Below, piece after piece: positions 2,152 through 63,278 of a stretch of 64,000 nt of DNA (positions are counted from its first letter, which is position 1; each line of letters starts with the position of its first letter). A program made the position numbers and the translations under genes. Origin of the DNA: Gemmatimonadaceae bacterium (lineage in GTDB: Bacteria > Gemmatimonadota > Gemmatimonadetes > Gemmatimonadales > Gemmatimonadaceae). Where the stretch lies: positions 175-64,174 of the forward strand of contig JANMAY010000055.1 in the NCBI GenBank assembly GCA_031360095.1, written 5' to 3'. The notes under the pieces are model-generated. The model did no database searches. It was not told where the DNA came from and saw nothing but the letters and a program-made list of their open reading frames with translations.

Positions 2152-4361
<2,210 letters not shown>

Positions 4362-44315: not shown

Positions 44316-45515
44316 TTACTGCACCGCGTTGATCATGTCGAAGATCGGCAGATACATGGCCACGACCATGCCGCCCACCACCACGCCAAGAAACACGATC
44401 ATGATCGGCTCCATGAGGCTCAGCAAGCCAGACACAGCGGCGTCGACCTCTTCATCGTAGAAGTCGGCGATTTTCGAAAGCATCTCGTCCAGACCACCGG
44501 TCTGCTCGCCCACCGCGATCATCGAGATCACCATCGGCGGAAACACCGCGGACTTCTGCAGCGGTGCGGAGATCGTTTCACCACCGGCGATCGACGTCCG
44601 CGACTCCATGATTGCGTCGGAGATGACGCGGTTGCCCGCCGTCTTCGCCGTGATCTCGAGGCCATCGAGAATCGACACGCCCGAGCCGATCAGCGTACCG
44701 AGCGTCCGCGTGAAGCGCGACACCGCCGACTTTCTGAGCACGTCGCCAAGCACCGGCATTTTCAGCATCAGTTTGTCGATCGCGAGCTTCCCGCTGCTCG
44801 TGGCGTAATACTTTTTGACGAAGAAGACGAACGCGAAAATCGCGGCGAGCACGATGTACCAGAAACTCGTCAGGAACTTCGACATGCCGATGACGACGCG
44901 CGTCGGGAACGGCAGCGCCATGCCGACGCTCGCGAACATCTTCTCGAACACCGGAATCACGAAGATCAGCAGCACGATGATCGCGATGGCCGCCACGCTC
45001 GAGATGACGGCCGGATAGATCATCGCGCCCTTCACCTTGCGCACGAGCGCATCGTTCTTTTCCATGAACGTCGCGAGCCGCATGAGGATGGTGTCGAGAA
45101 TACCGCCCGCTTCACCGGCGGCGACCATGTTCACATACAGCTCGCTGAACGCCTTGGGATGTTTGCGCAGCGCGTCCGCCACGGTGTGACCGCTCTCGAC
45201 GTCGAACACGACGGCGTGCGTCACGTCCTTGAGCGCCTTGTTCTAGCTCTGCTTCGCGAGGATGTCGAGGGCCTCCACCAGCGGCAGGACGGCGTTGATC
45301 ATGGTCGAGAACTGCCGCGTGAAGATCACGATGTCGCGCATCGAGATACGGCCGCCGCTCTTTTTCTTCTTCGCGGTGGCGGTTTCGTCGATCTTCACGA
45401 CGTTCAGGCGCTGCTTTCTCAGCTGCGCGACGACGTCGTCCCGGCTCGGCGCGTCGATCGTTGCGGTGCGAAGGTCGCCGTTGAGGGCGCGGGCCGTATA
45501 GGTAAATGCTGGCAT
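44316..45515 (-). pseudogene. pilC: Type IV pilus platform protein PilC (GspF family) interrupted by one in-frame TAG
   Basis: ORFs 45243-45515 (90 aa, PilC N-terminus) and 44316-45224 (302 aa, remainder) are in the same frame. They are separated only by a TAG at 45243-45245. The continuous reading is ...LDILAKQS*NKALKDVTHAVVFDVESGHTVADALRKHPKAF..., totalling 400 codons including the terminal stop, the normal PilC length. Confidence 0.8.
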
Positions 45516-45537: not shown

Positions 45538-45656
45538 GTAGGACGGTAGGACGGTAGGACGGTAGGACGGCCAGCCTCGGGACGTCCCTACAGTCGTTTC
45601 CGTTCTACTGTCCTACCGTCCTACTGTCCTACCGTCCTACCGTCCTACCGTCCTAC
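45538..45656. repeat. Inverted arrays of a tandem 8-bp unit: (GTAGGACG)x4 at 45538-45569 and (YGTCCTAC)x7 at 45601-45656
   Basis: Counted directly. The two arms are reverse complements of each other. The spacer contains the 10-bp palindrome GGGACGTCCC at 45579-45588. The array fills the pilT-pilC intergenic region, and the pilT stop codon (45653-45655) lies inside the last unit. Confidence 0.9.
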
Positions 45657-46801
45657 CTCTTTCCCGCCATCGCCCCACCCGACGCGCCGGGCTTCTTCGC
45701 GCCGTCGTCCTCGGGTGACTGGCCGATCATGCGCAGGAATTCGTTCGCGTCGTGTGTCGCACGAAGGCAATCGTCCAGCGCGACTTCCCGGCTCATGTAC
45801 AAGCCGTACAGCGCGTCGTTCATGGTCTGCATACCATACTTCTTTCCGGACTGCATGGTGCTGTAAATCTGGTGGATCTTGTCGTCGCGGATCAGCGCAC
45901 GCACCGCCGGCGTGACGACGAGAATCTCCGCGGCCATCGCGCGGCCGCGGCCCTTCGCCTTGGGCAGCAGCGTCTGCGTGATGATGCCCTCGAGCACGAA
46001 CGCGAGTTGCGCGCGCACCTGGCTCTGCTGGTGAGCCGGAAAGACATCGATGATGCGATTGATCGCCTCGGCCGCGCTGTTGGTGTGCAGCGTGGCGAAG
46101 GCAAGGTGGCCTGTTTCGGAGATCGTGAGTGCCGCCTGGATCGTATCCAGGTCGCGCATCTCACCGATCAGAATGACATCGGGATCCTGACGCAGCGCGT
46201 ACTTGAGCGATGCCTGGAAGCTCTTCGTGTCCGTTCCCACCTCGCGCTGGTTGACGATGCAGCCCTGGTGGCGGTGAATGAACTCGATGGGATCTTCGAC
46301 CGTGATGATGTGACCCTTCCGCTCCTTGTTGATCTTGTCGATCATCGCGGCGAGCGTCGTGCTCTTGCCCGACCCCGTAGGGCCCGTCACGAGCACCAGA
46401 CCGCGCGGCCGTTCCGCCATCTTGCGGATCACGTCGGGGAGCTTGAGCTCGTCGAAGGTCTTGATCGAAAACGGAATCTGCCGGATCACCATCGAGACAC
46501 AGCCGCGCTGCTTGAAGCAGTTGCCGCGAAAGCGCGCAAGGTTCTGGATGCCGAACGAGAAATCCAGCTCGTCCTCCATCTCGAACCGCTTCTTCTGATT
46601 TTCGGTGAGCACGCTGTAGGCGAGTTGCAGCGTATCCTTTGGCGACATCACGAACTCGAGATTCGAGTTCTGGATCTCGCCGTCGATGCGCATCTTGGGG
46701 CGCTCGCCGGCAGTCACGTGCAAGTCGGACGCGTCGCGCTCGATCATCTCCTCGAGCAGCACGCGGAGATTGACGCCTTGGGCTGATGCGGGTGCGGTCA
46801 T
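45653..46801 (-). CDS. pilT: Type IV pilus retraction ATPase PilT
   Basis: ORF 45653-46831, whose first codon is a TTG; the ATG at 46801 is preferred. Walker A is GPTGSGKSTT, and the PilT-type motifs TLHTNSAAEAINRIID and PAVRALIRDDKIHQI are present. Confidence 0.9.
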   Translation of the reverse strand: MTAPASAQGVNLRVLLEEMIERDASDLHVTAGERPKMRIDGEIQNSNLEFVMSPKDTLQLAYSVLTENQKKRFEMEDELDFSFGIQNLARFRGNCFKQRGCVSMVIRQIPFSIKTFDELKLPDVIRKMAERPRGLVLVTGPTGSGKSTTLAAMIDKINKERKGHIITVEDPIEFIHRHQGCIVNQREVGTDTKSFQASLKYALRQDPDVILIGEMRDLDTIQAALTISETGHLAFATLHTNSAAEAINRIIDVFPAHQQSQVRAQLAFVLEGIITQTLLPKAKGRGRAMAAEILVVTPAVRALIRDDKIHQIYSTMQSGKKYGMQTMNDALYGLYMSREVALDDCLRATHDANEFLRMIGQSPEDDGAKKPGASGGAMAGKR

Positions 46802-50091: not shown

Positions 50092-51921
<1,830 letters not shown>

Positions 51922-52035: not shown

Positions 52036-52677
52036 CTAATGTCCGGTGCGGGCAGGCGTCGCGCCGGAGAAAGTAACCAGATCACTGAGCTTTTGAAGGG
52101 TAGCGGCTCCAAGACCCTTGACTCGACCTAGTCCGTCAAGGGATTTGAACGCGCCAAAGGAGTCGCGATTGGCGACGATTCGCCTTGCCGTCGCCGCGCC
52201 AACGCGGGGGAGCTTGTCGATTTCGGCCGCACTGGCAACGTCGAGGTCGATGCGCGACCGCTCACCTTTATATATGGTAGCGCGCGGGAGCGGCGCTGGA
52301 GTCCGATAGTCGACATCGATTCGAGGTCCGGGCGGCGGAAAGCCGGATCTGGACGAGACGGACCCGTACGGGGCGTGAGAAAATGGGTCGTCTGGCCTGG
52401 CAAAGTTCTGTGGGACGGAGGCGACACCAGCGACTATTTTGGCGACAGTATCGCGACTGCTAGGCGTCATTTTATGCTGTCTAGCTCCTTTGCTGCGCTT
52501 TGTTTTCGTGGCCTCCGCGGCGGCTTGATCTGCTGCCGTTGCTTGACCTGCGAGGGCCTGCTGCTCCGATTCAGTCGGACCCGCTGCGGAGCCGGCGCGA
52601 ACGACCCGGACGGCGCCGCCGAGCAGGATGATGATGGCGACGAAGGCGAGGGCCTTTTGTTCTGAGGGTGTTGGCAT
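52036..52677 (-). CDS. comEA: ComEA-like helix-hairpin-helix DNA-binding protein
   Basis: ORF 52036-52728 trimmed to the ATG at 52677 (MPTPSEQKALAFVAIIILLGGAV membrane anchor). The C-terminal tandem HhH region is IDLDVASAAEIDKLPRVGAATARRIVANRDSFGAFKSLDGLGRVKGLGAATLQKL. Confidence 0.75.
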   Translation of the reverse strand: MPTPSEQKALAFVAIIILLGGAVRVVRAGSAAGPTESEQQALAGQATAADQAAAEATKTKRSKGARQHKMTPSSRDTVAKIVAGVASVPQNFARPDDPFSHAPYGSVSSRSGFPPPGPRIDVDYRTPAPLPRATIYKGERSRIDLDVASAAEIDKLPRVGAATARRIVANRDSFGAFKSLDGLGRVKGLGAATLQKLSDLVTFSGATPARTGH

Positions 52678-52834
52678 GGGGCGGAAGATGCCGAGTGTGG
52701 CCACCTGTCCATCACCGAATCCGTGCATGTACGATCAAAACACCCGACGTGTCGCGGAGAACTTTCAAAGCGCTTGCTCAGAAGTCCTCCGCGACAACCA
52801 AACTTCGCAGTGGATTTGCCTTGTTGCGGCGGTG

Positions 52835-53317
52835 TTACGCCGCCTTTCTGGTCGAGATGGGGAGCGGAACCAACTCCGCCGCACGGACCCGACCAAAGAC
52901 TCGCCGCTCAACGATCGCATCGACTGAGAATGCGCCCGCGCCCGTCACGCCAAGAGCTGTGGCCATGGCGAGGAGTGCGAGGGGGAACTCGAATCCGCCG
53001 GGGTTGAAGAATCCCGCCTTGAGATGCACAGCCAGGATGGCTACGACCATGGTGCTGGAGAGTCCGAACGCGGCGAAGCGCGTCAGGAGGCCGAGGATGA
53101 TCGCGAGCCCGCCGAAGAGCTCGACGAGGGCGACGAAGGGTCCGAGCAGGCCTGGTATGGGCATGCCCATCTGCGCGAATGCGCCAGAGACGCCGGCGAA
53201 GCCATAGACGAACAACTTTTGCCCCCCGTGCATGACGAAGGTGGCGCCAAGGACGACGCGGAGGATTGTGAGGCCGATGGTGACTTGGCGCGCGGAGGGA
53301 GAACGGAAGATCGACAT
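52835..53317 (-). CDS. DoxX family membrane protein
   Basis: 160 aa with four predicted transmembrane helices. The characteristic DoxX stretch is LRVVLGATFVMHGGQKLF...VELFGGLAIILGLLTRFAAF. Confidence 0.8.
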   Translation of the reverse strand: MSIFRSPSARQVTIGLTILRVVLGATFVMHGGQKLFVYGFAGVSGAFAQMGMPIPGLLGPFVALVELFGGLAIILGLLTRFAAFGLSSTMVVAILAVHLKAGFFNPGGFEFPLALLAMATALGVTGAGAFSVDAIVERRVFGRVRAAELVPLPISTRKAA

Positions 53318-53361
53318 GAGAGGGTGCCTCGAGTGAGTGGTGATTCGGTGTCGCGATACTT

Positions 53362-53375
53362 GGTGTTATAACATC
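53362..53375. promoter_or_regulatory. Putative MarR operator GGTGTTATAACATC (contains the perfect palindrome TGTTATAACA)
   Basis: Read directly. It lies in the AT-rich 75-bp gap between the marR stop and the doxX start. It matches the site upstream of marR (53872-53885) in 13 of 14 positions. Confidence 0.5.
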
Positions 53376-53392
53376 TATTAGTTCAAAAAAAC

Positions 53393-53860
53393 CTAATCTT
53401 TGTCTCGCGCCTTGGTGAGCAAATCGATCAATGAGCGCAACTGAGCGTCGGTAAGGTGCCCGAGCTGCGCTTCGTGCAACTCGCTGACAGGCTGGTCGAG
53501 CTCGTCCAGCAGTCGAAGCGCCCTGGCGGTGATCCGGGTGGAAACGAGCCGCCGATCGTCGCTGTCTCTCGAGCGCAACACCAGCCCCGCCTCCTCCATC
53601 CGGTCGAGCAGGCGTGTCATGTCCGGCATGCGCGTAAGCATGCGGTCGCGCAGTGCGTTTCGACATAACCCGTCGGGTTCCGAGCCCCGAAGAATCCGGA
53701 GCACGTTGTACTGCGTGCCACTGATGCCATACGGCTTGAACAAATCTTCCATGGCATCCACGAGCGCCGTCGACGTCCGCAGCACATTCAGAAAGCACTC
53801 CTGGGAGAGGCTCGTGAACGGCTTGCTCTGGCGAAGATCACTGCGAAGCGTGGCGGGCAT
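53393..53860 (-). CDS. MarR family transcriptional regulator
   Basis: 155 aa with a winged-helix region (GISGTQYNVLRILRGSEPDGLCRNALRDRMLTRMPDMTRLLDRMEEAGLVLRSRDSDDRRLV) typical of the MarR/SlyA family. Confidence 0.85.
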   Translation of the reverse strand: MPATLRSDLRQSKPFTSLSQECFLNVLRTSTALVDAMEDLFKPYGISGTQYNVLRILRGSEPDGLCRNALRDRMLTRMPDMTRLLDRMEEAGLVLRSRDSDDRRLVSTRITARALRLLDELDQPVSELHEAQLGHLTDAQLRSLIDLLTKARDKD

Positions 53861-53871
53861 GAGTGAATGTA

Positions 53872-53885
53872 GGTGTTATGACATC
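53872..53885. promoter_or_regulatory. Putative MarR operator GGTGTTATGACATC
   Basis: Read directly. It lies 12-25 nt upstream of the marR start codon and matches the site at 53362-53375 in 13 of 14 positions. Confidence 0.5.
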
Positions 53886-54073
53886 GAGTGTCAAGACCTC
53901 GGATCGAAACGGCCGAGGTGGCATGGATTGGCGAACAACCACAATGGCGGACAGCCCAACCGCGGAACCGATATGGGAACCGCTCGAACATCCGGCGGAT
54001 CGCTCCTCGTTCAGTCGCGTAAAGATTCGTCCCAGCGACAGCTCATACGAGTAAAGGAACTCTCTTCGCTCGA

Positions 54074-55027
54074 TCATTGATCCATGATCAACGACAGCGC
54101 AACGTCTCCGACGATCTGTAGACTCTTCGCCGAGACATGCTCCATCGTATCCCCGAGCGTGTGATGGTAGTTCGGAGAGGAGTAGCCTGCCGGCCCGAGC
54201 GGACCGTAGTCGATGTCGAGCACGTCGATCACGCGATATCCCTTCTGGAGGAACGGCACGTGGTCGTCGGTGATCGCCGACGCATACGCGCGCGGGATGA
54301 AGTACTTGGCGTATCCCAGGTCCGCGGCCTTTTGCCACACTCTGCTCACGACCTCCGGCGCGCCGTTCATCGAGTTGGGCTCCTGAAGGATGTTGAGGTC
54401 TGCGTCGCCGATCATATCCCAGAGCACGCCGTAGATGGGCCGGTAGTCGGGTGACGGCGGATGCGCAACGAAGTACTGCGAGCCGAGGAGCACGTCGGTG
54501 TACGGTGGATCGAAGCTGGTGCCGTAGTCCTCACCATCCACGAGCAACAGGTCCACGCCGATGTTGGGCGGTGTCTTCTTCATCACGTCGGCAAGCGCAA
54601 TGAACAACCCGACGCCGGAGGCGCCGTCGTTGGCGCCGAGAATGGGCGTCGCGCGGTTGCCGAGCACTGGATCGCTGTCGGCCACAGGACGCGTATCCCA
54701 GTGCGTGATGTAGAGCACGCGCTGCGTGGCGTGCGGACGAAAGCGCGCGAAGATGTTTCGCAGCGCGATCGAGTCGCCCTTGAGCGTTTTGTGCTTCCAG
54801 CGCTGCTCGATGACGGTGTCCGCGCGCTGCTTCATCATCGTCACGATCCAATCCCCGGCCTTCTCGGCTCCGGCAGTGCCAGGCACGCGCGGACCGAAGG
54901 CGACCTGCTGTCGCACGTACGAAAGCGCCGAATCACCGTTGAAGGCGGTCTTCGGCCGGCTCGGCAGCTTATCGCAGGCGGTGAGGCTGATCGCAGCAGC
55001 GAGAATCATCAGCACGCGAATCGTCAT
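54074..55027 (-). CDS. M28-family lipoprotein, glutaminyl cyclase-like
   Basis: 317 aa. The lipobox is MILAAAISLTAC. The motifs ITHWDTRPVADSDP, GANDGASGVGLFIALADVM and LLLVDGEDYG are those I recall from bacterial type II glutaminyl-peptide cyclotransferases and related M28 peptidases. Confidence 0.65.
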   Translation of the reverse strand: MTIRVLMILAAAISLTACDKLPSRPKTAFNGDSALSYVRQQVAFGPRVPGTAGAEKAGDWIVTMMKQRADTVIEQRWKHKTLKGDSIALRNIFARFRPHATQRVLYITHWDTRPVADSDPVLGNRATPILGANDGASGVGLFIALADVMKKTPPNIGVDLLLVDGEDYGTSFDPPYTDVLLGSQYFVAHPPSPDYRPIYGVLWDMIGDADLNILQEPNSMNGAPEVVSRVWQKAADLGYAKYFIPRAYASAITDDHVPFLQKGYRVIDVLDIDYGPLGPAGYSSPNYHHTLGDTMEHVSAKSLQIVGDVALSLIMDQ

Positions 55028-55033
55028 TGATGG

Positions 55034-55149
55034 GTAGGACTGTAGGACGGTAGGCCGGTAGGACGGTAGGACGGTAGGACGGGAGAGAGCGGAGCGGGGG
55101 AGACCAGCGGGAGCGGATCGTGTTGCAGTTTGCGGTCCTACGGTCCTAC
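55034..55149. repeat. Second inverted array of the 8-bp unit: (GTAGGMYK)x6 at 55034-55081 and (GGTCCTAC)x2 at 55134-55149
   Basis: Counted directly. The left-arm units are GTAGGACT, GTAGGACG, GTAGGCCG, GTAGGACG, GTAGGACG, GTAGGACG. After a 52-bp spacer come two reverse-complement units. The element fills the gap between the sprA stop (55151) and the M28 gene start (55027). Confidence 0.9.
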
Positions 55150-55150
55150 G

Positions 55151-58100
55151 TCATTTCGGTTCCCCAAAGAACTGCACCTGCAGCACCGTCGACAGCACGA
55201 GCTGTGTCGCGCGACGGTTGAAGTTGTTGTCGTACGTGATCACACGCGAGCCCTGCAGCGTGAAGATTACAGTTTCGCTCAAGTCGGTGTCGGCATTGAT
55301 GCTCACCGCGCTGCGGCCGTTGTCGGCGAGGCGGCTCGTTCCCAGGCGCGCAAGATCGTTGATGTACGTGCTCGTGCGCGTCTGCTGCCACCCCACACGC
55401 GTGCGAATGTCGTTCTCGATGGTGAAGCCGAGGCTTTTCGGCAGCTTGAATGGACGGCCGATATCGAGGCTCACTTCCTCGGACCTTCCGTCGGCGACGC
55501 TGCCGGGAAGTGAATCGACGCGCGTCGTCAGTGTATAGCCGGCAGACGATGTGAGCCCGCGCCCGAAGCCCCACAGCACCGACGCATTGAGCGGGATGGT
55601 GCGCGTTCGTGAGCCGCGGAGCTCCGGTCGCTCACGGTTTACATCGCCGGGCAAAAGGGTGGACGCAAGGGAGCGCGCGTAGCCGGCGTTGGCGCCGACG
55701 GAGGCGAGAAATGGCAGCACCATTGCGGGCGGCTTCCAGTTCCAGCGAACGCTGACGTCGGGGAACACGGTCTGTGCGCCGTCGGCGACAGACTGCGCGT
55801 CGTCGGAGCGACGCGTCCAACTGCGCGTCGTGGTGCGGCGGTAGCGATTTACGAAGGCGACGTTTCCGGGAAAGAGAAACGACTGGCTCGCAGCGAGCGC
55901 CTGGGTGAGGCCGGTGGTCGCAGCGAGTTGGCCATTCGCCTGTCGAAACGCATCGATGCCTCCCAGTCCGAACTGCAGGCCGAGGGGCGAACCGTTGCTG
56001 GCGGCGTCGAACGCGGAGAGCAAGCTGCGATTGACGGTGATGTCGAGTGGCGCAAACACTCTGGCAAGCCGCCGAGCGAGCGAGGAATCCGCGCCGTAGA
56101 TCGTGAGGGCGCGGCCGAGATCGATCGTCACGCCGCCGCCGAGGTTCTGCGACACCGTGATACGGCGCGGCAATGTCTCCGTCACGGTGTTGCCGAACGT
56201 GAGACCGGCGAGCGAGCCGGCGTTCGGATCGCGCAGCATGCCGTACTGCGTGCCGAAGTCCACGCGCGGCTTGAACCACTGCGAGCGCTGTGGCGCGAAT
56301 GCCATCGACGTGAGCAGAGAGCGTTCGCGCTCCATCCCGACATTGGCGCCGAACAGCTGCGCGCGACTATCGGTAGCCGCTCGGGCAGCGGCGGTCGTAT
56401 CCCCATAGTCGCGGAGGTCGCGCAATGAGATGAAGTCCCAGCGCGCGGTGAGTGCGTCGGTAGGGCGGAACTCGAGCGTGCTCGCGTTGCGCCACAGGTT
56501 TTGTTCGGCGCGCGAGACGCGAGCGGAATCGTCGAACGCGGCGGCGGGCTTGAGAAACGAAAACCGCTGATCGGTACCGCGCACCACGCCGCTGGAGAAG
56601 CGCAGCACCGTGGGATTCCAGCGAAACAGCGTGGGTTGATTGAGGGTGTCCGCGAAGCGAAAGAATCCAGGCATGAACCTCGACGGCGAGCCAAGCAGCC
56701 CGGGCACGCGCGTGCGCCGCGCTTCCGCCGCGACGCTGTAGTCGAGGCTCATCGCAAAGTTGTCACTCACGCCTCGCTGATATTCGTTGCGGCTGTCGCC
56801 CGTGGTGTAGGTCGAGGTCAACCCGAGATTGTCCACCAGCGCGCTGACGAGCGGATTGCCCACAGGCGCCGTACGACGCACCGTGAGCGCGTACGTCGTG
56901 ACCCCCTGGGACGGAGCGCGCAGATTCTGCACTCCCGCGCCGGGAACGTCGGTGCCACTCAGGAACAGTGGTGTACTCGCCGCAGACACGTGCGTGATGG
57001 TGAGCGGCACGGCGAACCCGAAGCTCACCGGCAACAGCTTTTCCAGATGCACGGTGCCAACGAGATCGAACACGCGATCGTTCACGAAGCTCGGCTGGTC
57101 GGTGAGCTGGCGAAAGTACGGATCCTTCTTCGTGAACCCCACGCGAATGTCAGCGATGCCCGCCGCGGATAGCGCAACGCTCATCTGGCCGGCATATCCG
57201 GGATGGTTGACGACCTGGCCGAGCCGGATGTCGTCGACCCAGAGTTCGAGTGAATCGGCAGGGCCGATCGTGCTCGGTGCACCGCCCGTCGCCGGAAGGC
57301 GGACGAAGCCAACGGCCATCTCCTGCACCGCCGCGAGATTGGGCGGTGCCGCTCCCGGCTCGACGGTGTACACCATGTAGCCGCCGTCGCACGCGGCGTA
57401 GCGCTGCTGGCCGGAGATCGCGGGAATCGGCGATGCGTTCACCAGGGCCGCATCGGCACCTGTGCACGAGAGCGTGTCGCCCTTGTTCTGCAGATACGCG
57501 TTCTGGATGCGCTGTCGCAACTGGAAGAAGCGGTCGAAGTCCACCCGGACTTCGGGATTCCATGCCTCCTGCCCCGGACCACTGTTGACCGGCGTGCGAT
57601 AGAGATAAAAGTTGTTCGCATCGCGTCCGATCTTCACGTACATCTGGAGCTCTCCGCGATCACCCCATCCGTTGCGGCGTCCGCGCGCCCAGAGCCTGAG
57701 CTGCTGGTACCCCATGAAGCTCTGCTGGCCATTGGGAAAGCGATAATACGCTTCGGCTCGGCCATACACCGGAAGGTTGCCCGCCTGTAGACGCAGCGAG
57801 CGCTCGTTGATCTGTGTCAGCCCCGTCGTGAACTGCGAGGTGCGCGTGTCGGCTTCGTCGATCACGCCGGGGGGCGGCTGGTAGTCGTCGCCGCTGACGG
57901 TGGACTTGTCCGCCGTTCCGATCAGCGACGTTTGCGTATATCCACCGGCTGGCCGCTCGCCAGCGATGCCCGACAGCGTTTGCTCGTTGCGCTTGATCCA
58001 CGGCGCTCCGGTGAGCTTGAGGCGCGCGAGGGGAATCTGAATGAACTCATCGTCGCGCGCACCTGCCCCGCTCACCATCGTCACGCGCAGCGCACGAACG

Positions 58101-61100
58101 CGGCGCAGGAGCACGTCGTTGAGCGTGTCGTCGGCGAGGCGGAAGGGCACCTTCACCTGCACCCACTGAAGCGCGCGAGGGGTGCCCGTGGCATCCAGGC
58201 GCTGGACGAACCGCTTTCCGAATCGCACCCAGCGTTTTTGATCGCTGAGGTCGACGACGAAGCGTGTGATGCGCTCGCGATCGCGCACGCTGCTCGGCAA
58301 GTTGAGGACGTTGTCGAGATCGATGTCTTCCTCGTCGAGCTTGTTGTTGTGCACCGTGCAATTAGCGCGCGTGTCGCCAAGTCGCGCGACGACGTTCAGC
58401 GTGCCGGAGCAGAGGGGAACGTTGAAGGCGCGTGTTGTCCCCGCGCCGGTGTCGACGAGCAGCGTATCCGCGATGTCGCCCGGCAGTCCGGTGTCGTTCG
58501 CATCGGCGTTGAATGCGCGGGAGATGGGATCGCGCTCCGAATCCAGACGGTCGAATCCCTGGAGCTTTTTGCCACGAAAGAGCGAGTCCGGCGTGGAACC
58601 GGGCCGGACGACGAGCGTTTCCGGCGCGAATGCGACGGTGTTCTCGGAGATCTCACCGAGATCGAAGACGAGTGTGGGATTGGACGCACGGCGCGCCGCG
58701 CTCGTGTCGACGAGCGTCCAAAACTCGAGGTCTTCGACGCGCGAGAGATCGGCACCGGACGGACTGAGCACGGTGCGCACGGACCGAAATCGGCGACCGG
58801 ATGGCGCGTTGGCGACCGACCAGGCATACGTGCGCGTCGCAGGATCGTACCGGCCGCCGATGCTCAAAGGATACAACGTGAGCCAGAGCACCGTCTCATT
58901 CGACGAGAAGAGGCCAGCGGTGAGCGCATTCTGATCGATGCTGTCACCGCGCACGAGGACGTTCACCCCATCGGCCGAGAGGCCGTTGTTCTGAAATGCG
59001 ATGGTGGAGGCTCGGCGAAGATCGAACGGATTGACGCCGTATTTCCGCGGCAGGAGGTGTCCGTCGGCGGGTTGACTTGCGAGCGCCCAGTTCTGGTCGG
59101 AGAGACCGACGGTAATCCCTGCCTCGCCCTCGAAGCTTTCGATGAACGCCTGGGCCTGTGTGTTCAGCTGCGGGCGGCTGGTGGCGAATTCGCCTTGCAC
59201 GCTGAGTCGTGACGGCGTCGTGCTCTTCACGAACGGCAAACGATTCATCAGCCGGGTGAGCGGCGCGACCTCCCATCCGATCTGCCCATTCACGCCGGCA
59301 AGAAGCGACGACACCGGCTCGAAGCCGAGCTGCGGGCGAGTGAAGTTGGTTTTCTGCGACTGCTGGACGGCGATGAAATTCAGCTCGCCATTCGGGAGTG
59401 GGAGTGTGCTCGTCATGCCGAACAGCGTCGTGGGTGTGACGGCGAACAGCGGATTCTCTTCGAATCGAACGCTCACCGCGCGCTGGCGTGTGAACAGCGT
59501 GTCTGGCCGCGCGAAGGTGAGCCGGCCGAGCTCGTAGTCGACGCGATAGTCGACGTCGCGCACGAGCGGCCTGCCATCGAGCACGACGCGCTCCGATCCC
59601 CTGCGCACCTGCACGCTGCCGAGCATGACGGCGCCGCCGGTGGATTCGGTGCTGGCATCGGTCTCGTAGCGCACCTTCAGGCGATAGACGTTCGCGGGAT
59701 GCTGCGGCGAATAGAGGTATTCGCCCGGGGTGACGTAGATCGCGTCGTTACTCGGGTTGCCCGGCACGACAAGCCCCGAGTCGCGGCGGGCGAACGGCTG
59801 AAGGGAGGGAAAGATCACGAAGTGGTCGCGAATGATCCGTCCGCCGCTCGCCGCGCTCGCGCTCGATGCGGCGCCAAGGGAGGCCGCACTCGCGAGTCCG
59901 GCAGTGCCGCCGGCTGCTGCGCTGTAGTTCGGATCGGAGGGTCGTGGCCACAGGCGGTTCTCGATGTCGAAGCTCGCGGGGTTGGTGGCTTGCGCGAGGC
60001 CGAGCATCTGGAGGAACGTTGCGTACGATCCTGCGGCGGGCTTTTCCTGCTCCCCTGCTCCGCTCACGATGCGAAGCGTGGTCGTGGCGCGCACCAGCTC
60101 CTCGCCACCCACGCGATACACCGAGCGGATCTCGCGCCGAAACGCCGGCGTGCCAGGAAGCACGTTGGGATCGGACACGAGGTTCGCCTGCTGATCGGCG
60201 CTGCTGAACTGCAGATCGGGAGTTCCGCCGGTGGCGGGGTAGACGGTGTCGACGCCATTGATGCGAACGGTGTACGCGACGACGAGGCGCTCGTTGGTCT
60301 GATTGAGGGGGCGCACCAGCGCGAACCAGAGCTGCGACGGATCGAGATAGTAGTCGACGCCTTCGCGAAGTACGTCGTACGTCTGCCGGCCGCCACCCGG
60401 ATCTCCGATCAGGCGAAAGCGCGGCCCGTTGGGATTTTGCGGTTGGGTGCCGAACTGCACGCGGTACAGGAGGACGCGTCGTGGGCGCAGGGTGTCGGGG
60501 AGTGACGCGGCGAGGGCCGTGAGTTGGCGGCGGTCGAGAATGTCGATGTTCGGATACGTTCCGGTGAACAGCGTGGGATCGACGGTGAAGAAGAAGCGCC
60601 TCGGCTCGATCTGATTGTCGAGGATTTCGTGCTCGGCGCTCTGGCGGGTGCGGTCGGCGATGAGATACGTGCGCTCCTGTGCGATGTTGCCTTTCTGCTG
60701 GGCGGCGATTGCCTGGAGACGAAAGCGCCCCAGGCGTCCGTTTGCCTGGAGCCCGTAGTTTCCGCTCGGCACGCCGCTGGAGAGGAATCGCGTGGAGGGC
60801 AGCGCGAAGGCGACGTTGCCCACCTCCACGCGCTGAAGGCGGTCGGTGGCTTTACCCTGGTAGTAGATGTTCAGTGCATTCGACGCGTCGAACTCGCGCT
60901 GGGTGTCGTAGTCGACGTTCACGTGCACACGATCCGCCACGGTGCCGGTGCTTTGCATCGTGAACTGGAACTTGAAGTCCGGGGTCAGGCCGGGCCGACA
61001 TTCCACGCCGGGGATGAACTGGCCGGTGTTGCATTTCTCGTCGAGCCGGCGTTCACCTTTGGCCTCGATGCGGGTGCGAACGTCGACATTGAGGTCCGTA

Positions 61101-61315
61101 TTCGGCCCAAAGAGGCCCGGCTTTTTGCCCGTGTCGGCGGCTGGGGCGCGCGGGAGCCTGGGCTTTCGGCTCGAGTCGGCGCCGGGCGGATGCAACGTGT
61201 CCACCCGCACGGAGTCCACGCGCGGCACCGGTGTGGACGGCGGCTGCTGCGCGCTCGCGGGCGAAGGCATGGCGAACACCGCAATTGCGGCGACGAGCCG
61301 GAGAACGCGCACCAA
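55151..61315 (-). CDS. sprA: SprA-like giant outer-membrane protein (type IX secretion translocon family)
   Basis: 2054-aa ORF with a signal peptide (VLRLVAAIAVFAMPSPASAQQ). The N-terminal block NIYYQGKATDRLQRVEVGNVAFALPSTRFLSSGVPSGNYGLQANGRLGRFRLQAIAAQQKGN parallels the conserved SprA block (...LEAGNVSMP...GxQxLFG...QFG...AQQxS). The rest has beta-rich composition throughout. The start codon is TTG (61315) or the adjacent GTG (61312). Confidence 0.7.
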   Translation of the reverse strand: MVRVLRLVAAIAVFAMPSPASAQQPPSTPVPRVDSVRVDTLHPPGADSSRKPRLPRAPAADTGKKPGLFGPNTDLNVDVRTRIEAKGERRLDEKCNTGQFIPGVECRPGLTPDFKFQFTMQSTGTVADRVHVNVDYDTQREFDASNALNIYYQGKATDRLQRVEVGNVAFALPSTRFLSSGVPSGNYGLQANGRLGRFRLQAIAAQQKGNIAQERTYLIADRTRQSAEHEILDNQIEPRRFFFTVDPTLFTGTYPNIDILDRRQLTALAASLPDTLRPRRVLLYRVQFGTQPQNPNGPRFRLIGDPGGGRQTYDVLREGVDYYLDPSQLWFALVRPLNQTNERLVVAYTVRINGVDTVYPATGGTPDLQFSSADQQANLVSDPNVLPGTPAFRREIRSVYRVGGEELVRATTTLRIVSGAGEQEKPAAGSYATFLQMLGLAQATNPASFDIENRLWPRPSDPNYSAAAGGTAGLASAASLGAASSASAASGGRIIRDHFVIFPSLQPFARRDSGLVVPGNPSNDAIYVTPGEYLYSPQHPANVYRLKVRYETDASTESTGGAVMLGSVQVRRGSERVVLDGRPLVRDVDYRVDYELGRLTFARPDTLFTRQRAVSVRFEENPLFAVTPTTLFGMTSTLPLPNGELNFIAVQQSQKTNFTRPQLGFEPVSSLLAGVNGQIGWEVAPLTRLMNRLPFVKSTTPSRLSVQGEFATSRPQLNTQAQAFIESFEGEAGITVGLSDQNWALASQPADGHLLPRKYGVNPFDLRRASTIAFQNNGLSADGVNVLVRGDSIDQNALTAGLFSSNETVLWLTLYPLSIGGRYDPATRTYAWSVANAPSGRRFRSVRTVLSPSGADLSRVEDLEFWTLVDTSAARRASNPTLVFDLGEISENTVAFAPETLVVRPGSTPDSLFRGKKLQGFDRLDSERDPISRAFNADANDTGLPGDIADTLLVDTGAGTTRAFNVPLCSGTLNVVARLGDTRANCTVHNNKLDEEDIDLDNVLNLPSSVRDRERITRFVVDLSDQKRWVRFGKRFVQRLDATGTPRALQWVQVKVPFRLADDTLNDVLLRRVRALRVTMVSGAGARDDEFIQIPLARLKLTGAPWIKRNEQTLSGIAGERPAGGYTQTSLIGTADKSTVSGDDYQPPPGVIDEADTRTSQFTTGLTQINERSLRLQAGNLPVYGRAEAYYRFPNGQQSFMGYQQLRLWARGRRNGWGDRGELQMYVKIGRDANNFYLYRTPVNSGPGQEAWNPEVRVDFDRFFQLRQRIQNAYLQNKGDTLSCTGADAALVNASPIPAISGQQRYAACDGGYMVYTVEPGAAPPNLAAVQEMAVGFVRLPATGGAPSTIGPADSLELWVDDIRLGQVVNHPGYAGQMSVALSAAGIADIRVGFTKKDPYFRQLTDQPSFVNDRVFDLVGTVHLEKLLPVSFGFAVPLTITHVSAASTPLFLSGTDVPGAGVQNLRAPSQGVTTYALTVRRTAPVGNPLVSALVDNLGLTSTYTTGDSRNEYQRGVSDNFAMSLDYSVAAEARRTRVPGLLGSPSRFMPGFFRFADTLNQPTLFRWNPTVLRFSSGVVRGTDQRFSFLKPAAAFDDSARVSRAEQNLWRNASTLEFRPTDALTARWDFISLRDLRDYGDTTAAARAATDSRAQLFGANVGMERERSLLTSMAFAPQRSQWFKPRVDFGTQYGMLRDPNAGSLAGLTFGNTVTETLPRRITVSQNLGGGVTIDLGRALTIYGADSSLARRLARVFAPLDITVNRSLLSAFDAASNGSPLGLQFGLGGIDAFRQANGQLAATTGLTQALAASQSFLFPGNVAFVNRYRRTTTRSWTRRSDDAQSVADGAQTVFPDVSVRWNWKPPAMVLPFLASVGANAGYARSLASTLLPGDVNRERPELRGSRTRTIPLNASVLWGFGRGLTSSAGYTLTTRVDSLPGSVADGRSEEVSLDIGRPFKLPKSLGFTIENDIRTRVGWQQTRTSTYINDLARLGTSRLADNGRSAVSINADTDLSETVIFTLQGSRVITYDNNFNRRATQLVLSTVLQVQFFGEPK

Positions 61316-61454: not shown

Positions 61455-63278
61455 GTGAAGATAATCACCCGTTACGTCCTCCGGGAACACGCTGGCCCAC
61501 TGGCGTTCGCGTTCACTGCGCTGACGTCGTTGATGCTGCTGAACTTCATCTCCCGGCAGTTCGGGGAGCTGGTGGGCAAGGGGCTGCCGTGGAGCGTGAT
61601 TGGCAAGTTTTTCCTCCTGTCCATTCCGTTCACGGTGGCACTCACGGTACCGATGTCCGTGCTCGTGGCAGTGCTGTTTGCGTATAGCCGGCTGGCGGCG
61701 GAGAACGAAGTAACGGCGCTCAAGGCCAATGGGGTGAGTCCGTGGCGCATGGTCACGCCGGCGATTCTGGCCGGGCTGGTGATGTCGGCGCTGCTGCTGG
61801 CCTTCAACGACCAGGTGCTGCCGCGTGCCAATCACGAGCTCAAGACGCTGCAAGAGGACATCTCGCAGACGCGACCCACGCTGCTGCTCAAGCCGCAGGT
61901 GATCAACGCCGTCTCGGAAGGAAAGTTGTACTTGAAGGCGGGATCGATCGACAATGGTGGCGGCCGGATGAAAGAGGTGGTGATCTACGATCTCAGCGAG
62001 TCGACGCGGCGGCGCACGATCTACGCGCAGCGCGGCGCGATTGCCTTCGCGCCCAATAAAGTCGACCTCGATCTCGATTTGTATGATGGCGAGATGCAGG
62101 AGGTGTCGACCGAAAAACCCACTCAGCTGAGCCGGATGTTTTTCAAGAAGGACCGCATTCGCGTTCGAAATGTCGGGCGGACCTTCTCGCAGAGCGCATC
62201 CGATTCGTCAAGCAAGGGCGATCGCGAGATGAGCATCTGCGAGATGCAGAAGCGTCTCTGGTCCGAGGAGACGCGCTACGACATGGCGAAGCGCGAATAC
62301 GCGCAGGTGCAGCGAGCGACGAATCGGTCGCTCGATCAACTGCCGCCGAGCTTCCGCCGCAAAATCGCGGAGCCACATGGCATCGGGTGGGTGTACTGCA
62401 CGCTGATGAACAAGGTGGGAGCGGTGCGCACCGCACACGCTGCCGACGTGGGCGCTGTGGTGTTGCACGCGTGGCAGGACACGGTGCCCCGGAAGCCGGT
62501 CGTGCAGCCGGCGATCGTGCGTGTGGAGTCGACGGCTGCCACGCCGCCGGTACGTCCGGAGACGAGCACCGCGGCCAAGCCGGTCATGATCACCCCACTG
62601 CAGGCACCAGCCACCGTCCCTGCGCCGGTACAGCAACCGGTGCAGCAACCGCTGCAGCAACCGCTGCAGCAGCCGGCGGTGGGAGTTGGCCAGCCCGTGT
62701 TGACGCCATTGCCCGCGGGCACTGTTCCCGGGGTCACTCCGGGTGTTCCAGGACCGGCGATGGATGCACAGGCCAGAATCGCCGCGCAAGCTGCGGCGGC
62801 GATGGCGACCGGGAACGTGTCCACTGAAATGACGATGCTGACTGCACGAAAGATGGAGGCGAAGGTGCGGTTGGACATGGCACAGCGTGCGCGCAATCGC
62901 TACGACATCGAGATTCACAAGAAGTTCTCGCTCGCGGCTGCATGTTTGATCTTTTGCATCGTGGCGCCGCCGATTGCGCTGCGCTTTCCGCGCGGCGGGG
63001 TGGGGCTGGTGCTCGTCGTGAGCCTGGTGGTGTTCGCGCTGTACTACGTGGGGCTGATCGGCGGCGAGTCATTGGCCAACAAGGGAATCGTGCCGCCATT
63101 TTGGGCGATGTGGGGCACAAACGTCATCATGACGCTGGTGGGGCTCGTGCTGCTGTTGCGCATGGGATACGAGAGCAACACCGGTCGCGGAGGCGGTGTG
63201 CGTGAATGGCTCGACAACATGCGGGCGCGGCGGGAGGATCGGCGAGCGGCGTCGCTTCGTGCGAAGGCCGCGGCATGA
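61455..63278 (+). CDS. LptF/LptG-family (YjgP/YjgQ) permease with a long Pro/Gln/Ala-rich insertion
   Basis: ORF 60942-63278 trimmed to the in-frame GTG at 61455 (VKIITRYVLREHAGPLAFAFTALTSLMLLNFI, the canonical family N-terminus). It has three N-terminal and three C-terminal transmembrane helices. At 607 aa it is much longer than the usual ~360-400 aa. The upstream part of the ORF overlaps sprA antisense. Confidence 0.8.
   Translation: MKIITRYVLREHAGPLAFAFTALTSLMLLNFISRQFGELVGKGLPWSVIGKFFLLSIPFTVALTVPMSVLVAVLFAYSRLAAENEVTALKANGVSPWRMVTPAILAGLVMSALLLAFNDQVLPRANHELKTLQEDISQTRPTLLLKPQVINAVSEGKLYLKAGSIDNGGGRMKEVVIYDLSESTRRRTIYAQRGAIAFAPNKVDLDLDLYDGEMQEVSTEKPTQLSRMFFKKDRIRVRNVGRTFSQSASDSSSKGDREMSICEMQKRLWSEETRYDMAKREYAQVQRATNRSLDQLPPSFRRKIAEPHGIGWVYCTLMNKVGAVRTAHAADVGAVVLHAWQDTVPRKPVVQPAIVRVESTAATPPVRPETSTAAKPVMITPLQAPATVPAPVQQPVQQPLQQPLQQPAVGVGQPVLTPLPAGTVPGVTPGVPGPAMDAQARIAAQAAAAMATGNVSTEMTMLTARKMEAKVRLDMAQRARNRYDIEIHKKFSLAAACLIFCIVAPPIALRFPRGGVGLVLVVSLVVFALYYVGLIGGESLANKGIVPPFWAMWGTNVIMTLVGLVLLLRMGYESNTGRGGGVREWLDNMRARREDRRAASLRAKAAA
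62625..62672 (+). repeat. Four tandem 12-nt units (CCGSTRCAGCAR) encoding PVQQ-PVQQ-PLQQ-PLQQ
   Basis: Counted directly. The repeat is in frame within the permease gene and lies inside its low-complexity insertion. Confidence 0.9.

Follow-up and report, generated by a model that had tools for sequence, protein, structure and literature searches.

An octamer-array palindrome between sprA and an M28 peptidase gene of a Gemmatimonadaceae bacterium as a putative copy of a dispersed repeat family

Introduction

What fills the gap between two neighbouring genes when that gap consists almost entirely of tandem octamers, and is it there to serve the genes or only itself? The question is raised by a 116-bp octamer-array element in a Gemmatimonadaceae bacterium, which occupies positions 55034-55149 of the window (the whole stretch of 64,000 nucleotides that was analysed) and extends from the stop codon of sprA to 6 nt before the start of an M28 peptidase gene. 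Short dispersed repeats, including REP sequences, STRRs and HOOF-print octamers, have been catalogued for decades; to our knowledge, REPs are the only ones amongst them with a known mobilising enzyme. A first-pass annotation of the window had seen the element as one of two copies of a recurring REP-like family. With moderate confidence, we favour the reading that Gemmatimonadota harbour a dispersed family of palindromic repeats and that these 116 bp represent a partly decayed member without an ORF. The family would be REPIN- or MITE-like, selfish or neutral, with arms that vary in the manner of VNTRs.

The element behind sprA

The units were re-read on the plus strand, and the coordinates, unit counts and distances of the first-pass annotation were all correct. 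The parts of the element and the adjoining codons are as follows.

Long arm, 55034..55081, minus strand: six GTAGGACN units as read on the plus strand, units 1 and 3 being variants
Spacer (loop), 55082..55133, minus strand: 52 nt
Short arm, 55134..55149, minus strand: two GGTCCTAC units as read on the plus strand, at 55134-55141 and 55142-55149
sprA stop codon, 55151..55153, minus strand: TGA, 1 nt from the array
M28 start codon, 55025..55027, minus strand: ATG, 6 nt from the array, a start conserved in orthologues

The sprA gene (55151-61315) is a 2054-aa ORF encoding the SprA/Sov translocon of the T9SS (TIGR04189, 667 bits with a cut-off of 200). The M28 peptidase gene (54074-55027) encodes 317 aa with a lipoprotein signal peptide, begins MTIRVLMILAAAISLTAC... 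and matches Peptidase_M28 at E = 1e-28. On the plus strand, the long arm is composed of GTAGGACT at 55034, GTAGGACG at 55042, GTAGGCCG at 55050, and GTAGGACG at 55058, 55066 and 55074, two of the six units thus carrying one substitution each. On the sprA/M28 transcript, the short arm becomes the 5′ arm, with two GUAGGACC units that begin 1 nt past the sprA stop codon, while the long arm becomes the 3′ arm, with six (C/A)GUCCUAC units that are open in three frames and end 6 nt before the M28 start. The end of the spacer beside the short arm (..GATCGTGTTGCAGTTTGCG on the plus strand) coincides with the loop core of other copies (..GAACGGCGTTG..GTTTGCC). The remainder of the 52-nt spacer, some 30 extra G-rich bases, is without counterpart in those copies.

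A point missed by the first-pass annotation is that the two arms are of different types. The short arm is GTAGGACC-type and the long arm GTAGGACG-type, and the RNA stem that they form therefore has C.C mismatches between 7-bp blocks. Only two of the six long-arm units can pair with the short arm. Because of this difference between the arms, the predicted RNA fold is a weak stem of ~17 bp with single mismatches (-37.6 kcal/mol, z = -3.4).

Several familiar categories do not describe the element. An intrinsic (Rho-independent) terminator was rejected, as there is no U-run and the 3′ arm is followed by CCAUCAAUG; a promoter and terminator scan found no promoter and no terminator-like site inside the element. 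A CRISPR array was likewise rejected, since its repeats are 23-50 nt long with unique spacers and the units here are 8 nt and contiguous. Readings of the unit as a CsrA (GGA) site or an anti-Shine-Dalgarno sequence fail on the many array variants that have no GGA or AGGA. An Rfam search in E-value mode over 44-56.5 kb of the window returned nothing on the sprA copy, and only sub-threshold matches to miRNA-like or generic hairpins on a second copy in the pil genes.

A second copy in the pil genes

TRF detects both arrays of the sprA copy, and there are only two such places in the window: this copy and a sister element at 45538-45657, which lies between a gene for a PilT-family ATPase (488 bits) and a pilC-like ORF.

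Arm, 45538..45569, minus strand: four GTAGGACG units as read on the plus strand
Loop, 45570..45601, minus strand: 32 nt, containing the palindrome GGGACGTCCC
Arm, 45602..45657, minus strand: seven complementary units

Within the outermost unit of the last of these arms lies the TAG that ends the PilT-family gene (45653-45655), and at the other end the arm 45538..45569 is followed by a GGAG motif and then by the start of the pilC-like ORF (45515). The coding-strand RNA of the pil copy folds into a perfect stem of 31 bp (-86 kcal/mol, z = -9.5). The first-pass annotation drew attention to the matching orientation of the two copies. This carries no information, since with this polarity GTAGGAC comes first whichever strand of the inverted repeat is read. 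In arm size, the two mRNAs are actually opposites (seven then four units in the pil copy, two then six in the sprA copy).

That the two copies are coincidental microsatellites or an assembly artefact is favoured by nothing more than the general ability of short tandem repeats to arise de novo. This explanation can be set aside with near certainty. The window contains 15 occurrences of GTAGGACG against 1.04 expected, a count that 0 of 100 shuffles reached, and the unit, its polarity and the loop core recur in many independent assemblies, on contigs of up to 1.8 Mb. Together with the size of the family, the excess over chance, the polarity and the loop core refute coincidence.

A dispersed family of octamer arrays

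A scan of species-representative genomes, in which three consecutive near-perfect units were required, found more than 109 array loci in public genomes. Among the matches listed, about 60 of these loci came from Gemmatimonadota MAGs, with at least 20 contigs in JBJKPA01, at least seven loci in CAVSOM01 and at least five in CAVSKV01; homologues of the window's M28 peptidase also carry Gemmatimonadota names. In each copy, tandem GTAGGACN octamers make up an outer arm, and complementary octamers form the other arm across a short core. Arms range from 2 to 17 tandem octamers across copies, and the core of 16-60 nt resembles a small palindrome. Spacers from different copies and genomes can be aligned on a core of approximately GGTGAACGGCGTTG..CAGTCATCC or ..GTTTGCC, which is often palindromic. 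Two copies on the L082 contig have an identical 32-nt loop with different flanks and arm lengths. Where two arms lie within 150 nt of each other, GTAGGAC comes before GTCCTAC in 22 cases and after it in one (p = 6e-6), leaving GTAG on the outside. By these comparisons, the octamer arrays are apparently a dispersed repeat that is being copied. The proposal of a recurring REP-like family is thus borne out by the number of loci, the many copies per Gemmatimonadaceae genome, the fixed polarity, the common loop core and the GTAGG head of the unit.

Variant units, such as GGTAAGAC, GGTCGGAC, GGTCAGAC and GGTAGGGC, occur in blocks within the arrays. Arm lengths differ between the two arms of a copy and between orthologous sites in different species, and units have turned over at orthologous arrays (L049 and L062; L123 and L124). 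The differences in arm length and the block-wise spread of variants indicate that the arms evolve like VNTRs. We found no evident target-site duplication in other copies; at the sprA copy, the flanks share only an imperfect GTCATT that does not abut the element on one side.

Octamer-array hairpins are also found in other phyla, with AGTAGGAC/AGTGAGAC units in Caldilineales, CGTAGGAC/CGTGGGAC units in Kiritimatiellae, and TGTAGGAC/TGTAAGAC units in Bacteroidales and Saprospiraceae, where up to 17 units occur. A further 14 matches on viral contigs were not counted as members. They consist of three GTCCTAC units, an AT-rich stretch and then GTAGGAC, are Bacteroidota-like and have no four-helix-bundle gene of the kind discussed below; they are probably unrelated operator or iteron sites.

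The family resembles the REP/BIME and REPIN-RAYT systems of gamma-proteobacteria, which are likewise dispersed intergenic palindromes in many copies, often behind genes and inside operons. REP sequences have a conserved 5′ GTAG/GTGG head; they start GTAGG, and the E. coli consensus starts GTAGGacg (PMC2817692). The unit of the element has the same GTAGG start, and all eight of its bases are those of the E. coli K-12 REP head, as is visible beside rayT in L217. REPINs are inverted pairs of REPs with their heads outward and are mobilised by RAYTs (PMC3116915), and the element has the same polarity. The copies could potentially be true REPINs, with an octamer that is a multiplied REP head (GTAG+G) and is copied by a single-copy RAYT (a Y1 tyrosine transposase) elsewhere in the genome; that the copies are intergenic and numerous would fit. 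We consider this rather unlikely, however. REPs are single imperfect palindromes of 20-40 nt, whereas each arm here repeats an 8-nt unit in tandem and in variable copy number, and many array variants (GTAAGAC, GTCAGAC, GTCGGAC, GTGAGAC) have no GTAG/GTGG head. A phmmer search of the window and ~215 fetched loci with E. coli RayT at E<=10 yielded no RAYT-like ORF; this is a single-sequence, cross-phylum query and hence a weak test. Nor was there a recurrent transposase family near the arrays, which is also a weak test. The phylum differs as well, and the gene that does recur with the element encodes a four-helix-bundle protein.

Another likeness is to the HOOF-Print typing repeats of Brucella, which are tandem AGGGCAGT octamers at eight or more loci with hypervariable unit numbers (PMC7589603, PMC1183211). 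Their unit is a cyclic permutation of GTAGGGCA, which is one substitution away from GTAGGACA (GTAGGACN). In L017, from the alphaproteobacterium Aquamicrobium, which belongs to the same order as Brucella, the Brucella unit CTGCCCTA lies directly beside CTGTCCTA (GTAGGACA-type) units. The Brucella and window octamers differ by one base, a likeness of sequence that may or may not reflect common descent. The two HOOF-Print papers describe these repeats as typing markers only, and inverted arms, a position at stop codons and an associated gene are undocumented in them. In the open-access papers, we found nothing relevant on the unit sequence or on octamer repeats in Gemmatimonadetes.

Position of the arrays at stop codons

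Among 47 classifiable copies in Gemmatimonadota, 32 lie between co-directional genes, ten between convergent and five between divergent genes. The most consistent feature of the sites is that an array has its outward GTAG end at a stop codon, which it abuts or supplies. A long ORF with high GC3 ends between -30 and +60 nt of the 5′ end of the array in 35 of 45 cases, compared with 6% of random positions, although gene calling in this census was crude and the 35 ORFs include some spurious antisense frames. The stop codon lies inside the array in 22 of these 35 ORFs, and TAG (29) is used more than TGA (6). Both copies in the window also sit on stop codons, with the PilT stop inside the first unit and the SprA stop 1 nt before it. 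Owing to the period of 8, three units of GTAGGACG are enough to place its TAG in each reading frame, while the complementary strand of GTAGGACG arrays has no stop in any frame. Several of the array-terminated ORFs end in ..VGR*, which is encoded by the array.

Ten of the array-terminated genes match Pfam models to the last C-terminal position. They encode an OYE oxidoreductase, DnaJ, two aminotransferases, a sigma-70 factor, a gamma-glutamyltranspeptidase, an FMN dehydrogenase, SucA, BipA and a zinc dehydrogenase. Envelope and secretion genes are therefore not enriched amongst the neighbours of arrays. The first-pass annotation had raised the possibility of such a link from the two copies in the window, and the functional diversity of the upstream genes does not support it.

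The arrangement could also be explained by a post-transcriptional device selected by the host, in which the hairpin behind the stop stabilises the upstream mRNA, serves as an RNase III site, or tunes the translation of the flanking cistrons. Pointing in this direction are the preponderance of copies between co-directional genes, the tight position at the stop codon, the 31-bp perfect stem of the pil copy, and the retention of one array at the same place in two genomes (L049/L062). A similar role has been suggested for REPs and for the cyanobacterial STRR heptamers, which form hairpins between hupS and hupL and for which transcript stability or translational coupling was proposed but is unproven (PMC2670836). 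STRRs are comparable in that tandem short units form hairpins between genes of one operon; they differ in their period (7 instead of 8), their sequences and their phylum, and no gene association has been reported for them. Nevertheless, we regard a host-selected device as unlikely. Many copies are single arrays with no hairpin possible, the arms are unequal and variable in length, there is neither a U-tract nor a terminator-like site, and the neighbouring genes share no function. Comparison of the sprA-M28 junction between relatives, given next, also argues against it.

The sprA-M28 junction in relatives

Homologues of the M28 peptidase with 70-89% identity were plentiful, and eight junctions were read; a look-up of the window's exact M28 protein found no recorded entry. 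The closest relative, L110 (89% identity in M28 protein and 86.8% in DNA), is collinear with the window across the junction. Directly behind its SprA stop come six GACGGTCT units and two GACGGTCC units, after which degenerate units continue as far as the ATG. The total is 8-9 units of GTCTGAC type, which have the orientation of the long arm in the window but a different unit; as both the short arm and the spacer are missing, no hairpin can form. In L120 (86%), degenerate units are present and the contig breaks 53 nt upstream of the ATG. The spacer of L121 (83%) is occupied by two copies of an unrelated repeat (TGTCATCCTGAGCGAGCG.AGCGAGTCGAAGGATC), eight contigs with 81% identity (L111-L118) have a plain spacer of 43 nt, and L119 (79%) has a spacer of 420 nt with other sequence. 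Thus, where M28 is at most 83% identical, the octamer element is absent from the junction or replaced by other repeats.

Judging from these sequences, the junction is a landing place for several repeat families, and the octamer array arose in the lineage of the window and L110/L120, with turnover of its arms since then. L110 is difficult to square with a function that depends on a hairpin at this junction. For a host-selected device it is unfavourable that the closest relative has no second arm and that other relatives have no array. The first-pass annotation had suggested a role in differential mRNA stability or translation within the operon; as a selected role, this is doubtful, given that the hairpin is not conserved at the orthologous junction. 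The tightness at stop codons and the retention of the array in L049 and L062 could still reflect a selected function as an alternative to a selfish or neutral repeat.

The junctions also bear on the start of the M28 gene. The first-pass annotation noted that the element leaves no room for a Shine-Dalgarno sequence, which is true, but the element is not the cause. In the junctions read, a Shine-Dalgarno sequence is absent before the conserved M28 start, including in orthologues without any array, and in the window GGAG or GAGG motifs occur at 7 of 34 crude gene starts compared with 11% of random 17-mers. Since array-free orthologues also have no such sequence and the motifs precede only a minority of gene starts in the window, the missing Shine-Dalgarno sequence is ancestral and ordinary for this organism.

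Association with four-helix-bundle protein genes

The only non-trivial recurrent ORF family within 2 kb of the arrays was a 120-150 aa 'four helix bundle protein' (4HB) of TIGR02436; the other recurrent ORFs near arrays were ABC ATPases only, which are common genes. The proteins match TIGR02436 in NCBIfam at E = 1e-27 to 1e-38, with weaker matches to the DGR accessory protein Avd. A 4HB gene lies between inverted octamer arms at four loci from four phyla, namely L045 (Bacteroidales), L023 (Caldilineales), L086 (Patescibacteria) and L101 (Gemmatimonadaceae). At L123 and L124, which are orthologous sites and the closest to L101, GTAGGACG units are found upstream of the gene and CGTCCTAC-type units downstream, which means that the gene has the arms of the window element on its two sides.

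When metagenomes were scanned with the L101 protein, 80 loci of 43-74% identity were obtained, such that the whole 4HB sample originates from one query. A tandem array of at least three units lies within 300 nt of the 4HB gene at 51 of the 80 loci (60 period-7 and 16 period-8 arrays), and the density of arrays is 1.83/kb near the gene compared with 0.19/kb in the rest of the same loci, or 9.6 times as high. When only genes with both 150-nt flanks are considered, 41 of 63 have a 7- or 8-nt array, 17 of them on both sides; in 12 of these 17, the units on the two sides are reverse complements within one mismatch, for which the chance is ~0.009 per pair. The genes of the window served as the control, as the set of ORFs within the same loci was too small for that purpose (n = 9), and three of 32 window genes lie near such arrays (Fisher p = 2e-7). 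Most of the arrays that flank 4HB genes are heptamers, which hints at a link to the STRRs. A rule that the arrays flanking 4HB genes have outward-facing stop codons was dropped, as the pairs were mixed when judged by eye (~7 outward and 8 inward). We found no report in the open-access literature of TIGR02436 genes flanked by tandem 7-8-nt arrays.

ORF-less and ORF-bearing copies occur side by side in CAVSOM01, which holds L002, L035, L039, L062, L072 and L094 without an ORF, and L101 with one. As TIGR02436 genes are found between the same arms within the Gemmatimonadaceae, the ORF-less copies are probably non-autonomous relatives of, or substrates for, the 4HB cassette. The window itself has no 4HB ORF by hmmsearch, and its two spacers measure only 52 and 32 nt. 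A derivation of ORF-less copies from the cassette by internal deletion found no support in the sequences, as both window spacers matched three cassette interiors no better than shuffles did in local alignment (p = 0.17-0.97). In the array-rich MAG JBJKPA01, a single 4HB gene was seen (L077), and the repeats that flank it are different. If the copies were true REPINs, the 4HB link would be incidental, for instance through small selfish genes landing in the same sites.

A tentative extension, which may well prove wrong, is that inverted 7- or 8-mer arrays and a TIGR02436 gene together form a widespread unrecognised mobile or self-maintaining cassette, of which the ORF-less hairpins are non-autonomous derivatives or trans substrates of the 4HB protein. 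It is possible, at a similarly tentative level, that this cassette is present in Gemmatimonadota, Bacteroidota, Chloroflexota, Patescibacteria and others, and the STRR, HOOF-print and Geobacter arrays might be the same kind of element. If this reading is true, the TIGR02436 family would gain its first function.

The arrays could alternatively be binding sites on DNA or RNA, either for a nucleoid protein (along the lines of IHF/HU) or for the pentameric 4HB protein, with ORF-less arrays as sites in trans. In Geobacter metallireducens, pairs of three to five tandem octa- or heptanucleotides on opposite strands and at variable distance occur in intergenic regions, including within operons (nifD-nifK, fliP-fliQ-fliR; PMC2700814 and its supplement 5). 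These arrays were read as IHF/HU or global-regulator sites, and the IS110-family element ISGme8 often inserts into them (PMC2700814). Their architecture matches that of the window element, although their units (GTTGCTYN, TCTCCGTS, MTYCTGA) are unrelated in sequence, which makes it a likeness of kind from which homology does not follow. That 4HB genes lie between their own arrays would agree with binding, as would a 7-mer with irregular spacing of 3-4 nt in a cyanobacterium (L021), Bacteroidales (L066) and phage-like contigs, where it looks like a recognition word more than a product of slippage alone. The unit sequence, however, varies freely inside arrays (GTAGGAC to GTAAGAC, GTCTGAC and others), a period of 8 bp does not keep step with the turns of the DNA helix, and the window has no 4HB gene. 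We therefore consider a binding array improbable.

Comparison with other transcribed palindromes

The stem of a 23S rRNA intervening sequence (IVS) is removed by RNase III. Genes of the TIGR02436/23S_rRNA_IVP type are known from rRNA intervening sequences (PMC11270868) and as insertions between operon genes, such as cmr3-cmr2 (PMC3936711). In an IVS, a TIGR02436 ORF lies within inverted repeats that pair into a stem in transcribed DNA, and the arms of the window element also pair; the window copy differs by having no ORF and lying outside rRNA, and in the literature found, tandem 7- or 8-nt arms are not described for IVSs.

MITEs offer a further parallel, as the inverted octamer arms correspond to terminal inverted repeats. 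The Correia/NEMIS elements of Neisseria are small, palindromic, non-autonomous MITEs that are co-transcribed with genes, and RNase III cuts their hairpin and changes the stability of the mRNA. Their terminal inverted repeats are 26 bp long, their target duplication is TA, and tandem octamers are not known from them. By analogy, they are the best model for how the element may work. The octamer element differs from a MITE in having no target-site duplication. Its longer partners L101, L123 and L124 have the same arms; the TIGR02436 protein that they encode is not a known transposase, and their interiors are not significantly similar to the window spacers. No insertion mechanism, target-site duplication or transposase was identified for the element.

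A possible history of the element

On the reading that we favour, the element would have been inserted as selfish or neutral DNA into a sprA-M28 spacer originally of ~40 nt. It may have been tolerated because translation ended at once and because an unstructured leader without a Shine-Dalgarno sequence was kept, like the ancestral one. Slipped-strand mispairing would then have remodelled the arms. On the mRNA, the two GUAGGACC units behind the sprA stop would pair with two of the six downstream units, over ~17 bp with C.C mismatches, and the resulting hairpin could hinder 3′-exonucleases or be cut by RNase III, which would uncouple the mRNA levels of sprA and M28. As the hairpin is not conserved at the junction, such an effect on the mRNA is probably a by-product and not the reason for the element's existence.

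Significance

A repeat family made of REP-headed octamer arrays is abundant in Gemmatimonadota, a major soil phylum. Its elements sit on stop codons even within operons for surface machinery, and they turn over fast enough to matter for assembly and strain typing. The statistical link of inverted 7-8-nt arrays to TIGR02436/Avd-like genes is the unexpected part. If this link is not causal, the element is an ordinary selfish repeat, and annotators should be careful not to label it as regulatory for sprA or the peptidase gene. If the link is causal, it would provide a testable hypothesis for the origin of the repeats and for the role of the protein family.

Genes and repeats around the sprA-M28 junction and the pil copy

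On eight contigs from different samples (L111-L118), in which M28 is 81% identical to that of the window, sprA is gone apart from a 95-aa C-terminal remnant (about 1170-1457, against 55155-61315 in the window). The remnant directly adjoins a divergent LptF/LptG gene, which in the window flanks the start of sprA, and the arrangement looks like a 6-kb deletion of this T9SS translocon gene. In another relative (L121, 790-905), the sprA-M28 spacer is filled by two tandem copies of a repeat from a further family, unrelated to the octamer arrays (TGTCATCCTGAGCGAGCG.AGCGAGTCGAAGGATC). Fragments of this repeat can be found at other Gemmatimonadota loci (L119, about 1095-1115; L046, about 3445-3468).

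In the window, about 1.3 kb (52740-54058) separates the M28 gene (54074-55027) from a ComEA-like HHH_3 gene (52036-52728). This stretch is missing from L110, L119, L121, and L122, where the M28 and HHH_3 genes are adjacent. It contains a 296-aa ORF, for which searches of Pfam and NCBIfam returned no match.

Additional features of the window
52908-53798, minus strand: 296-aa ORF inside the 1.3-kb stretch
44316-45515, minus strand: split pilC (T2SSF) gene, in-frame TAG at 45243-45245 (..LAKQS*NKALKD..)
62625-62676: 12-nt tandem repeat CCGGTGCAGCAA, 4.3 copies (TRF)
50149-50199: 27-nt tandem repeat, 1.9 copies (TRF)

The pilC gene, which lies downstream of the pil copy (the sister element at 45538-45657), is interrupted by the TAG codon, and its two halves share one reading frame and each match T2SSF. 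The interruption could be a nonsense mutation, making pilC a pseudogene, or a sequencing error. The 12-nt and 27-nt tandem repeats are probably coding repeats.

Arrays around four-helix-bundle genes and other possible cargo

In several metagenome cassettes (L142, L144, L185, and L200), the stop codon of the TIGR02436 four-helix-bundle (4HB) gene lies inside the downstream array, which begins 3-11 nt ahead of the end of the ORF. These 4HB genes mirror the host genes that end in arrays. In the octamer-rich genome of the Gemmatimonadaceae MAG JBJKPA01 (L077, 540-1190), a TIGR02436 gene is located between the two halves of a different inverted repeat, CAACTGAAGGCAGAG...GCCTTCAGTTG, which shows GCTGACGG/CAGTCAGC-like periodicity; several arm types are therefore possible within one genome. 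Arms of sixteen and fifteen octamer units enclose about 300 nt in the Bacteroidales MAG KA21 (L032, 770-1072). No ORF was found between these arms, and the interior contains five short perfect palindromes (e.g., GAACCCCGTAGGGGTTC and CCGACGGGTAAACCCGTCGG); it may represent a structured RNA or some other type of cargo.

The 7-mer in viral and cyanobacterial sequences

In L066 and in Bacteroidota-like IMG/VR contigs (L203, L204, L207, L213, L215, and L216), the same 7-mer occurs in a layout unlike that of the octamer arrays. In the viral contigs, three GTCCTAC copies are followed by about 90 nt of AT-rich DNA and then by scattered, irregularly spaced GTAGGAC copies, an arrangement that looks like operator or iteron sites rather than slippage arrays. 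At a cyanobacterial locus (L021), GTCCTAC recurs at an irregular spacing of 3-4 nt.

Paired arrays and IS110-family elements

Clustering of the ORFs around the arrays studied here revealed no IS110-like cluster near them. In Geobacter metallireducens, copies of the IS110-family element ISGme8 very often adjoin the class 1 paired octanucleotide arrays (PMC2700814, supplement 5). Given this frequent adjacency, such paired arrays may be insertion targets for IS110-type elements.
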